1,617 bases of DNA from Naegleria gruberi (taxonomy: Eukaryota), in NCBI GenBank assembly GCA_000004985.1, contig GG739370.1, one strand, 5' to 3'. Under the pieces are notes generated by a model. The model saw nothing but the letters and a program-made list of their open reading frames with translations, was not told where the DNA came from and did no database searches. Every line of letters begins with the position of its first letter. The stretch's first letter is position 1. The translations under genes were made by a program, and so were the position numbers. This document shows positions 1 through 1,617 of the stretch, one piece after another.

Positions 1-328
1 CGTTTTGGAAGATAGTCTTTGCTGTTTCAAACTTCTCATTGAATAACATATAAAATCCTTGAAATTTGTTAAAGTACACAGAATATTTCTTCAACTCATT
101 ACTGGATTCTCCTTCTTTTACATTGAAAACTCCCTTATTACCAAACATGGTGTTGAACACATTCTTAATGTATAGCTCTGTATTATTCATGTCTTTAGAT
201 TCCATTTTGAGAATTTCTTCAAACTTGTCCTCGTTTGTTGCTAAGTGTTGGAAAAAGTTCAACACGAAAAATTCCTTTGGTTTTTCCTTTCTTTCCTTTG
301 TCAAAATCTTCTTTGTATTCGAAACATA
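1..328 (-). other. C-terminal extension beyond the kinase domain, at least 109 aa, continuing past the window edge. No recognisable domain.
   Basis: Same reading frame as the kinase. The translation is YVSNTKKILTKERKEKPKEFFVLNFFQHLATNEDKFEEILKMESKDMNNTELYIKNVFNTMFGNKGVFNVKEGESSNELKKYSVYFNKFQGFYMLFNEKFETAKTIFQN... It starts Lys/Glu-rich and then becomes Phe/Asn-rich. No stop occurs before position 1. Confidence 0.6.
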
Positions 329-1234
329 AAAGTAAAATTGAGCAAGTATTTCCTCCATAATTGCAACAGAAGGAATCCTCTTTGCATGATTCTGAAAACA
401 GGACCACAAGTATGGGACCATATAGCTATTCCTCAATCTTTTCTGATACAAACCATCTGTTACAACTTGATTCTCTTCATCAGTTCCATATAAATGTATT
501 CTTAATTGGTGAGGTTGCAATAGACGAAACGTGGTTGTTAAATCACCAGTTATCATTTGATAAATAATAGCTCCCAACTCCCAAACATCATAAGTTTCAC
601 TATACAATTCAGGTGGAGAAGTAACTTGACCTCCAGACGACAAGTCAATATCACCATCACACATTTTTGGCGGACCACTGTGCATTCTCTCAAAATCTGC
701 CAAAACAATTTTGAGAATTCCCTTTTCCTTATCAAATTCCTCTACTAATAGGTTTGCAAGTGAAATATCTCGATGGATGATTTTCTTTGTTTCGAGGAAA
801 ACAAGAGTATTGGTCAGTTGATAGGCAACCATAAAGATCAGATCCGTTGGAAGACATGTCTCTTCACTGGCAGTCTCATTTTGCAAGACTAGTTGTTCTA
901 AATCACTGAAATATTTTGGCATTTCAATAATCAAGTATTTTTCATAAGGTATTACCTTGTTGATTTTTACAATATTTGGATGATTAATATCTTTTACAAT
1001 TTTAGCAGCTTCATATTCCTTTTCGAACTCTGCTAGTACTTCTGGATCGAGATTTTCAACCATTCGAATTACAACTTTCTCTTTGGAATTGAGGTCTTTA
1101 AGAATTTCAGCCTCAAAGAGAGTTATTTTTATGGTGTTTCTTTCGCCTCTATCAGTTAATTTCTTTGGGGAGGAATAACCCAAAGACTTGAGAAGCTTTG
1201 TCGCTTTGCATTCTTTGGTTTCACTTTCTAACAT
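1..1234 (-). CDS. Eukaryotic-type (Hanks/ePK-fold) protein kinase-like protein. 5' end complete (ATG 1234..1232). 3' end truncated by the window edge, with no stop codon before position 1. Divergent catalytic motifs, possibly a pseudokinase.
   Basis: Manual translation of the minus strand, with codon high-ends at 1234, 1231, ... down to 4..2. The frame holds 411 codons with no stop. An in-frame TAA lies upstream at 1261..1259, so ATG 1234..1232 is the first start. The product begins MLESETKECKATKLLKSLGYSSPKKLTDRGERNTIKITLFEAEILKDLNSKEKVVIRMVENLDPEVLAEFEKEYEAAKIVKDINHPNIVKINKVIPYEKYLIIEMPKYFSDLEQLVLQNETASEETCLPTDLIFMVAYQLTNTLVFLETKKIIHRDISLANLLVEEFDKEKGILKIVLADFERMHSGPPKMCDGDIDLSSGGQVTSPPELYSETYDVWELGAIIYQMITGDLTTTFRLLQPHQLRIHLYGTDEENQVVTDGLYQKRLRNSYMVPYLWSCFQNHAKRIPSVAIMEEILAQFYFYVSN... 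The kinase subdomain landmarks are in canonical order and spacing: HPNIV (982..968), HRDISLAN (775..752), DFE (697..689), SPPE (619..608), DVWELG (589..572), and KRIPSVAIMEEILAQFYF (382..329). A 411-codon open frame in roughly 30% GC DNA is very unlikely by chance. The supplied ORF track misses it, apparently because no stop lies inside the window. Confidence 0.85.
   Translation of the reverse strand, partial: MLESETKECKATKLLKSLGYSSPKKLTDRGERNTIKITLFEAEILKDLNSKEKVVIRMVENLDPEVLAEFEKEYEAAKIVKDINHPNIVKINKVIPYEKYLIIEMPKYFSDLEQLVLQNETASEETCLPTDLIFMVAYQLTNTLVFLETKKIIHRDISLANLLVEEFDKEKGILKIVLADFERMHSGPPKMCDGDIDLSSGGQVTSPPELYSETYDVWELGAIIYQMITGDLTTTFRLLQPHQLRIHLYGTDEENQVVTDGLYQKRLRNSYMVPYLWSCFQNHAKRIPSVAIMEEILAQFYFYVSNTKKILTKERKEKPKEFFVLNFFQHLATNEDKFEEILKMESKDMNNTELYIKNVFNTMFGNKGVFNVKEGESSNELKKYSVYFNKFQGFYMLFNEKFETAKTIFQN
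329..1190 (-). other. Protein kinase catalytic-domain region of the CDS above, roughly residues 15-302 of the window-encoded protein.
   Basis: The region runs from a degenerate Gly-loop-like LGYSSP (about 1183..1166) to the C-terminal KRIP...FYF motif of the kinase fold, ending at 331..329. The residues in between carry ePK subdomain landmarks III through XI: an alphaC-like EFEKEYEAAK, HPNIV, hinge LIIEM, HRD...N, DF(E), (P)PE, D.WELG, and the subdomain XI Arg in KRIP. Confidence 0.75.
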
Positions 1235-1309
1235 TTTTTCTAATAGCTTGTTAGAAACTTATTACAATCTACAAGTTTAAATAGGTTATTATTCATCTCT
1301 TAAAAGACG

Positions 1310-1318
1310 TTTATAAAA
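1310..1318 (-). promoter_or_regulatory. TATA-like element (TTTATAAAA, which reads TATAAA on both strands) about 76-85 bp upstream of the kinase ATG. The start codon sits in an A-rich context (AGAAAAAATGT).
   Basis: Plus-strand tttataaaa lies at 1310-1318, and the minus strand reads TATAAA at 1315..1310. The start context, read on the minus strand, is caagctattagaaaaaATGTTA, with A at -3 and A-rich -1..-6. This is typical of AT-rich eukaryotes such as yeasts and protists. I see no Shine-Dalgarno-like GGAGG. Confidence 0.3.
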
Positions 1319-1361
1319 TATCTCATATTTAAAAGTTTAGAGATTATTGTAAAAGTTATTC

Positions 1362-1583
1362 ATGTTTTCCAATTCTAATTCAAAACTGTCAAATTATTTT
1401 CATTTGAAATATTTTTGTAAACGTGATTTCTATCTCTTGATGTTTTGCACAAATCACGTTGTCGAGATAACAGAATTTCTTCTTCATCATAAATTGCTAT
1501 CAATTAATCCAGCATCAGAGTCTTTGATTGCTTCCAAAAAAAATAGTCTGGAAAAATTCTTCCACTTAAAAATAGACATTTAA
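1362..1583 (+). CDS. Hypothetical small ORF (73 aa), divergent from the kinase gene. Weak evidence; probably non-coding.
   Basis: From the supplied track: MFSNSNSKLSNYFHLKYFCKRDFYLLMFCTNHVVEITEFLLHHKLLSINPASESLIASKKNSLEKFFHLKIDI. GC rises locally to about 32% over 1441-1560, against about 20% in the adjacent flank. The TAA stop at 1581-1583 is followed by aaaaaataaaataaaaaaaa, which contains AATAAA. The protein has no recognisable motif and is partly low-complexity. It overlaps the inverted repeat. Confidence 0.15.
   Translation: MFSNSNSKLSNYFHLKYFCKRDFYLLMFCTNHVVEITEFLLHHKLLSINPASESLIASKKNSLEKFFHLKIDI
1420..1460. repeat. Perfect 10-bp inverted repeat, AACGTGATTT (1420-1429) and AAATCACGTT (1451-1460), separated by a 21-nt spacer. 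A candidate palindromic regulatory site or hairpin in the 5' flank of the kinase gene.
   Basis: Direct read: 1420-1429 is aacgtgattt, and the reverse complement of 1451-1460 (aaatcacgtt) is aacgtgattt. The match does not extend on either side. Each arm carries an ACGT/CACGT core of the bZIP/bHLH (E-box/G-box) type. The repeat lies about 190-225 bp upstream of the ATG at 1234. Confidence 0.55.
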
Positions 1584-1617
1584 TTAAAAAATAAAATAAA
1601 AAAAATGCAGCTAGCAC

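Follow-up and report, generated by a model that had tools for sequence, protein, structure and literature searches.

The window analysed here, 1617 bp of contig GG739370.1 from Naegleria gruberi (GenBank assembly GCA_000004985.1) with a G+C content of 32%, has a sole long open reading frame (ORF), which lies on the minus strand and represents a partial coding sequence (CDS) for a kinase-like protein (1..1234, with the ATG at 1234..1232 and 411 codons without a stop before position 1). The question raised by this locus is which residue of the protein occupies the position of the β3 lysine, i.e. the lysine of the VAIK motif. The original prediction, made from the DNA letters alone, had left two candidates, namely K36, which would require an insertion of about 40 residues between β3 and the αC helix, and R57, which would represent a Lys-to-Arg change of the kind known from KSR pseudokinases. 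All the residues quoted in it were found by translation exactly where it had located them: LGYSSP at aa 18–23 (1183..1166), NTIKIT at aa 33–38 with K36 at 1129..1127, VVIRM at aa 54–58 with R57 at 1066..1064, and EFEKEYEAAK at aa 69–78 (1030..1001), all on the minus strand, as are the other protein features given below. R57 occupies the β3 lysine position, which resolves the ambiguity. Judging from sequence comparison, structural modelling and analogy with known systems, we consider it probable (about 0.7) that the gene codes for a conserved, Naegleria-restricted predicted pseudokinase with a TPR-like tail, which would act as a scaffold.

Assignment of the β3 lysine position

The protein-kinase-fold domain, delimited by a Pfam match to PF00069 (Pkinase, aa 49–232, 53.8 bits with a cutoff of 31.7) and by AlphaFold, spans about aa 21–300 (335..1174), with the N-terminus of the protein starting 20 residues ahead of it. 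In a sequence search of the PDB the best matches were CDK2 and MARK kinases (~1e-11), and CDK/MARK/CAMK-type kinases are the best sequence and fold matches overall. AlphaFold prediction from the single sequence was unusable, with a predicted local distance difference test (pLDDT) value of 36.7, and the model used here was obtained with an alignment of 58 sequences. It has a mean pLDDT of 77, a predicted template modelling score of 0.75 and pLDDT values of 80–96 in the kinase core, and it displays the bilobal fold of a kinase with strands β1–3, helix αC, strands β4–5 and a helical C-lobe.

Strand β3, SKEKVVIRMVEN, corresponds to aa 50–61 (1052..1087) and is predicted with a pLDDT of about 92 over aa 51–60. 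R57 (codon CGA, 1064..1066) stands at the VAIK-lysine position in it and V55 replaces the VAIK alanine. When the N-lobe only (aa 1–118) was used for a phmmer search of the PDB, the segment KVVIRMVE was aligned with EVAV[K/R]IID of MARK kinases, and the top two chains (2wzj and 1zmv) have VAVR at the position of R57. R57 likewise falls in the lysine column of canonical kinases when the protein is aligned by MAFFT, be it with 18 or with 57 further sequences. A canonical profile hidden Markov model (HMM), which was our own build from the 53 canonical kinases of the MAFFT alignment, puts its consensus kvAiK over KVVIR with the highest class of posterior probability. In the AlphaFold model the N-lobe strands are aa 21–32, 35–47 and 50–61, followed by a helix at aa 67–81, so R57 is located on the third strand just ahead of αC. 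The second of the two assignments is thus upheld by phmmer, MAFFT, the canonical profile and the strand order alike, and the HMM alignment and structure prediction which had been proposed as checks both assign β3 to R57. A lysine confidently placed in β3 together with a normal Lys–Glu pair and a recognisable glycine-rich loop, the combination which would have spoken against the Lys-to-Arg reading, was not found. The VAIK lysine of a catalytically competent kinase is therefore missing, with R57 in its column.

In the AlphaFold model K36 (codon AAA, 1127..1129), the first of the two candidates, occupies position two of the second strand (aa 35–47) and adjoins the turn N33–T34 at the tip of the β1–β2 hairpin which takes the place of the glycine-rich loop. 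No alignment (phmmer, MAFFT or the canonical profile) puts it in the lysine column, and an insertion of about 40 residues between β3 and αC has no room, as strand 50–61 is continuous and is followed by helix 67–81.

Glycine-rich loop

As claimed in the original prediction, the N-lobe is devoid of a GxGxxG motif. The degenerate region where the loop would be expected (aa 17–40, 1115..1186) can be aligned in three rival ways. MAFFT in the automatic mode puts L18–G19 on the xG opening the motif, with an insertion of 16 residues. MAFFT L-INS-i applied to the N-lobes matches D28–N33 (DRGERN) to GKGNFG and to the GEGLFD found in a relative from Willaertia, G30 being the second glycine, and this placement agrees with the AlphaFold turn at N33–T34. 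Gapless extension of the β3 alignment with CDK2 and MARK puts I35–F40 (IKITLF) on GxGxxG. At most one glycine is retained in any of these placements, and with the canonical profile no residue before aa 46 can be aligned. With three methods giving three positions, the loop is not reliably placeable by sequence alignment; LGYSSP, previously considered the best candidate, is correct in its coordinates but is one of three equally weak placements rather than a unique one.

The column frequencies given here and below refer to 359 non-family kinase domains aligned to the canonical profile, with further column counts over 436 other domains. At least two of the three loop glycines are kept in 91% of the 359 domains and none in 2.8%.

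An upstream exon with a genuine glycine-rich loop was rejected in view of an in-frame stop nine codons before the ATG, and no GxGxxG was found in any frame of the 383-bp region upstream. The closest paralogue of the protein (P0273, see below) likewise begins directly at the kinase domain, which also argues against such an exon.

αC helix and catalytic motifs

Helix αC corresponds to aa 67–81 (992..1036) in the AlphaFold model. Its register is anchored on the well-conserved NHPNIV motif following it, and the column of the canonical αC glutamate falls on A76 (1007..1009) whether the alignment is made with CDK2, with MARK or with the canonical profile. The glutamate which had been sought within EFEKEYEAAK is out of register, with E75 (1010..1012) and E73 (1016..1018) at −1 and −3 from the canonical column, respectively. 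A one-residue register shift making E75 the partner of R57 is possible but would be uncommon, because the spacing between the glutamate and the histidine is rarely 10: among HP-anchored kinases it was 9 in 263 of 270 (97%) and 10 in 5 of 270 (2%). A profile-free regular expression found glutamate at H−9 in 204 of the 226 HPN[IVL][IVL] sites and at H−10 alone, which is the pattern of the window protein, in 10.

The catalytic loop reads HRDISLAN (aa 154–161, 752..775). The HRD aspartate (Asp156) and the catalytic-loop asparagine (Asn161), both expected of a competent kinase, are kept. The catalytic-loop lysine, which is Lys in 302 of the 436 domains, is replaced by Ser158, and no arginine is present at D+4 (Ala160). 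The DFG motif is replaced by DFE (aa 180–182, 689..697), in which Asp180 is kept and Glu182 stands in place of glycine, so the Asp and Gly pair of a competent kinase is incomplete.

These substitutions are rare. Of the 436 domains, 365 have Lys and 4 have Arg at the β3 position, 355 have Glu and 3 have Ala at the αC position, and 320 have Gly and 4 have Glu at DFG+2. Among the 359 non-family domains the respective values are 94% Lys and 1% Arg, 85% Glu and less than 1% Ala, and 75% Gly and 1% Glu, with Lys, Glu and DFG-Gly jointly lost in only two distinct proteins. As judged from these alignments, the degeneracy is beyond what chance would produce. The earlier description of the ATP-binding lobe as atypical agrees well with the arginine in β3, the missing glycine-rich loop, A76 in the glutamate column and the bulky residue at the VAIK alanine. 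DFE with its phenylalanine is limited to Naegleria sequences among the 274 proteins compared.

Some of these features were also met with elsewhere. P0151, an apparently unrelated environmental protein of 257 aa, possesses an arginine in β3, Asn at the αC position and DYE, while keeping HRDIKIEN, and is a second case of β3 arginine together with an acidic residue at the DFG glycine. Ciliate CDPK-like proteins, e.g. P0002 from Tetrahymena malaccensis, contain HRDISLKN or HRQLSLEN with no lysine at D+2, so the HRDxSLxN variant is not unique to the Naegleria proteins described below.

Relatives of the protein and the Naegleria family

No close orthologue was found when 1.84 billion cluster representatives were searched exhaustively with HMMER. 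The same search revealed three sequences sharing the peculiarities of the window protein, which itself combines β3 Arg, αC Ala, HRDISLAN, DFE and Val at the VAIK alanine. P0061 (N. gruberi NAEGRDRAFT_70853, 325 aa) has β3 Arg, αC Ala, HRDIELDN, DFE and Val at the VAIK alanine, and P0272 (N. fowleri FDP41_008846, 856 aa) has β3 Arg, αC Ala, HRDFSLHN, DFE and Met at the VAIK alanine. P0273 (N. gruberi NAEGRDRAFT_67864, 658 aa) is the closest paralogue, being 34% identical across 406 aa that take in the tail; its β3 is not alignable and its VAIK-Ala position is unaligned, its αC residue is Ile and its catalytic loop reads HRDITLKN, so of the three substitutions it shares DFE only. The VAIK-Ala column, which makes the adenine contact, thus has a bulky residue in the window protein, P0061 and P0272, while it is Ala in 90% of other kinase domains.

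The window protein, P0061 and P0272 have the Arg/Ala/DFE combination in common at about 30% identity. As it recurs in both an N. gruberi paralogue and an N. fowleri relative, the combination is, on the alignments, fixed in a small family confined to Naegleria and does not reflect the decay of a single gene. The traits of this family are β3 Arg, Ala at the αC glutamate column, HRD[IF]xLxN, DFE, an MPxY hinge, WSC(F/L)Q and a TPR-like tail, all of which are displayed by the window protein. A profile built from the family separates it from other kinases, the training members scoring 263–526 bits higher on it than on the canonical profile and all other proteins lower. A search of a 5.8-billion-protein index with the family alignment returned generic kinases only and missed the known paralogues too, and is thus uninformative on family size. 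A scan of JGI (Joint Genome Institute) metagenomes with the pattern [IVM]HRD[IF][SET]LxN[IL] gave 80 loci with no family member among them.

Six of the environmental loci (L003, L012, L017, L059, L060 and L070, on contigs JAESGV01...) code for eukaryote-like kinases with HRDISLxN and DFD. L003 and L070 have a repeat tail fused to the kinase, which is ankyrin-like by eye, and L017 retains GEGGIG and the β3 lysine. This HRDISLxN and DFD group falls outside the Naegleria family, with 150 bits on the canonical profile versus 77 on the family profile.

The nearest relative with canonical-looking residues is ABK040_003234 from Willaertia magna (P0111, 33% identity). Like the window protein, it has EEFDKE...IKI(R/V)L.DF in the stretch that separates the catalytic loop from DFx. 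Unlike the window protein, it keeps GEGLFD, VSVK, HRDIKLEN and DFG, with the lysine, the glutamate and DFG all intact, and its score on the family profile is no better than on the canonical one.

The kinase-like domain is followed by a helical C-terminal extension (aa about 290–411, 2..367) into a TPR-like tail, which runs past the window and is predicted by AlphaFold as helices with low pLDDT. The tail aligns with P0273 through the TPR region of the latter. The Pfam matches to TPR are sub-threshold in P0273, as well as in the continuation of the gene on an environmental contig described in the next section, and strong in P0272, where seven repeats are detected. The TPR region of P0272 also passes the cutoff of the Pfam model TPR_BSK1_C (45.3 vs 42.2 bits), among much stronger generic TPR matches.

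Integrity of the gene

An environmental contig of 4550 bp, hereafter L001, carries a copy of the gene with 96.6% DNA identity to the window. The 1233 coding bases shared by the two sequences differ by 17 substitutions, of which 6 are synonymous and 11 nonsynonymous, without a single insertion or deletion, and all 31 gap columns of the alignment fall in the 383-bp upstream region. On its own this comparison is weak evidence against a pseudogene.

At about position 3480 of L001 a 1-bp frameshift follows codon 465, after which the TPR-like coding sequence, homologous to the tail of P0273, carries on in a different frame for some 225 codons. The frameshift reflects either faulty assembly or a gene recently inactivated in that strain.

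Function of the kinase-like domain

According to the sequence definition, pseudokinases are proteins without at least one of the VAIK lysine, the HRD aspartate and the DFG aspartate (PMC13519141), and the window protein falls under it with R57 in place of the lysine. In the reading we prefer, that of a pseudokinase scaffold, the kinase-like domain would no longer perform ordinary phosphotransfer and would serve as a conformationally stable interaction module. Together with the C-terminal TPR-like repeats, this module would assemble partner proteins, as has been proposed for pseudokinase scaffolds and for plant BSKs.

Several observations weigh against this reading. Asp156, Asn161 and Asp180 are kept in all the paralogues, which could mean nucleotide or metal binding, or even catalysis, and ATP binding persists in KSR2 despite an identical Lys-to-Arg change (PMC13519141). 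The register shift discussed above, seen in about 2% of HP-anchored kinases, could allow E75 to pair with R57. The family itself consists of only four distinct sequences, in one of which (P0273) β3 is not confidently alignable, and the TPR-like character of the window tail rests on sub-threshold Pfam matches and on homology to P0273. The dN/dS ratio with respect to L001, the sole close copy, is 0.44, which with only 17 differences is not significant (p about 0.1).

An alternative reading is that of a rewired but active enzyme, in which R57 would pair with Glu182 (or with E75 or E73) instead of the canonical αC glutamate, while Asp156, Asn161 and Asp180 would bind the metal and nucleotide, and which would catalyse phosphotransfer or some other reaction that depends on nucleotides, with a substrate that may not be a protein. 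It would fit with this that paralogues with about 30% identity all have the HRD aspartate, the asparagine and the DFx aspartate, and that K>R, αC E>A and G>E co-occur, as expected of a relocated acidic partner, although such co-loss would also be produced by a relaxed catalytic constraint. There are precedents in POMK, where the ATP-positioning lysine pairs with the aspartate replacing the DFG glycine in DLD, in KSR2, whose VAIR binds ATP/Mg, and in WNK, which is active with a relocated lysine (PMC13519141); the unrelated P0151 also combines β3 Arg, a non-Glu αC residue and DYE. On the other hand, no glycine-rich loop is present for clamping the phosphates, the adenine-contact column has a bulky Val or Met, and positive charge is absent from Ser158 and Ala160, both positions varying among the paralogues (A/S, D, H, K). 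An active enzyme of this kind seems unlikely to us. Its most far-reaching form, drawn by analogy with POMK, is a kinase-fold enzyme with the ion pair moved to β3-Arg:DFE-Glu, the catalytic Asp/Asn/Asp kept, a charged β-hairpin for the glycine-rich loop and regulation by the TPR tail; we would give this version little credence, though if true it would imply a departure from the canon in how nucleotide is bound, in the substrate or in the chemistry.

A role of K36 as the functional ATP-anchoring lysine, whether in a β3 strand followed by an insertion of about 40 residues or from β2 in the manner of WNK and POMK, is hardly credible. It is true that K36 lies on the second strand of the model at a roughly canonical spacing from LG19, and that both WNK and POMK use a β2 lysine (PMC13519141). 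Apart from its absence from the lysine column and the lack of space for the insertion, no lysine equivalent to K36 is seen in P0061 in the L-INS-i alignment of the N-lobes, and K36 follows I35, the equivalent of the β2 valine according to L-INS-i and AlphaFold, so that by canonical geometry it would be expected to face away from the pocket. In WNK1 the lysine sits at the column of the third glycine of the loop. This column corresponds by alignment to F40 or N33, three to four residues away from K36. In view of the alignments, the order of the strands and its poor conservation, K36 was rejected both as the β3 residue and as a WNK-like lysine.

The odd motifs could, finally, be random damage in a decaying pseudogene or an assembly artefact, a suspicion raised by the contig of just 1617 bp with a partial NCBI gene model, by the frameshift in L001 downstream of the part matching the window and by the dN/dS ratio not significantly below 1. 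Despite that, an open frame of 411 codons is not expected by chance in DNA of 32% G+C, paralogues from N. gruberi and N. fowleri carry these substitutions as fixed changes, and the fold is confidently predicted by AlphaFold. Because the independent contig L001 preserves the coding frame without any indel and full-length paralogues exist in two species, we find decay very unlikely.

Gene model and flanking regions

The encoded protein is 100% identical to the "predicted protein, partial [Naegleria gruberi]" (XP_002668061 / EFC35317, 371 aa) of NCBI, which the ORF of the window extends by 40 further in-frame residues. The annotated protein terminates at ...NKGVFN, as though the next gtaaaag were an intron donor, and no stop closes the frame before the window ends (2..121, minus strand). 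As the 40 extra C-terminal residues are matched by both L001 and P0273, the annotated 3′ end of XP_002668061 is probably wrong.

An AT-rich intergenic region (1235..1604) lies between two divergently transcribed genes. Most of the gaps between the window and L001 are confined to one stretch of about 50 bp (about 1440..1500) within this region, and the 210 bp nearest the ATG of the kinase gene contain just two substitutions. The last bases of the window (1605..1617, plus strand), ATGCAGCTAGCAC, represent the start (MQLA...) of the divergently transcribed neighbour gene, which is a 420-aa ORF in L001 with a single, sub-threshold Pfam match to Rad51 (E 0.007).

Comparison with known systems

Previously annotated just as a partial predicted protein, the gene can now be described as a member of a small lineage-specific family of predicted pseudokinase-TPR proteins. 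It is the assignment of R57 and the joint fixation of K>R, αC E>A and DFG>DFE in several paralogues that turn a single odd sequence into a family. Pseudokinases are common, so a new member is added rather than a new principle, and as a predicted pseudokinase the window protein is fairly ordinary and of modest value. The acidic residue at the DFG glycine together with the lost αC glutamate makes the family a concrete, testable case of ion-pair relocation outside POMK. Furthermore, N. fowleri is pathogenic and lethal to humans; members of the family that have no counterpart in the host might be of interest as markers or targets, provided they turn out to be essential.

The KSR family is defined by a RAF-type kinase domain with accessory CA/C1 regions, and its members combine VAIR with DFG; the best PDB matches of the window protein are CDK2 and MARK and not RAF or KSR, and a Pfam search of it gave kinase models only, with no KSR domain. 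The KSR-like signature suggested earlier is therefore borne out as far as the Lys-to-Arg motif goes and does not extend to a wider likeness. With KSR1 and KSR2 the window protein shares the β3 Lys-to-Arg change within a recognisable kinase fold and the HRD aspartate; KSR2 has VAIK changed to VAIR with DFG kept and binds ATP/Mg (PMC13519141), whereas the window protein has DFE, lacks the glycine-rich loop and has Ala in the αC glutamate column.

The Tribbles proteins TRIB1–3 are scaffolds whose glycine-rich loops are without the canonical glycines and in which SLE replaces DFG, TRIB3 also having Ala at the αC glutamate (PMC7586955). The window protein resembles them in the missing loop glycines, the glutamate ending the DFG position and, as regards TRIB3, the Ala in αC. 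The two differ in that TRIBs keep the β3 lysine and lose the DFG aspartate and the HRD histidine, while the reverse is true of the window protein.

POMK (SgK196) has DLD for DFG and an αC glutamate which is not the ion-pair partner (PMC13519141), and shares with the window protein an acidic residue at the DFG glycine. Unlike the latter, it is an active glycan kinase of the secretory pathway with its lysine on β2 and MCD for HRD, and homology to it beyond the shared fold is not indicated. In WNK a lysine on strand β2 substitutes for the missing VAIK lysine (PMC13519141), and the window protein has no β2 lysine at the WNK position.

A kinase-like domain followed by a C-terminal TPR region is also found in the plant BSK (RLCK-XII) proteins, of which BSK3 has been proposed to be a kinase-TPR scaffold and BSK8 has been called a pseudokinase (PMC6336344). 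BSK3 differs in keeping the β3 lysine (K86), and the kinase domains are not specifically related. Neither sequence nor fold ranking supports a specific kinship of the window protein with KSR, TRIB or BSK, and the kinase-TPR architecture most likely arose independently in BSKs and in Naegleria.

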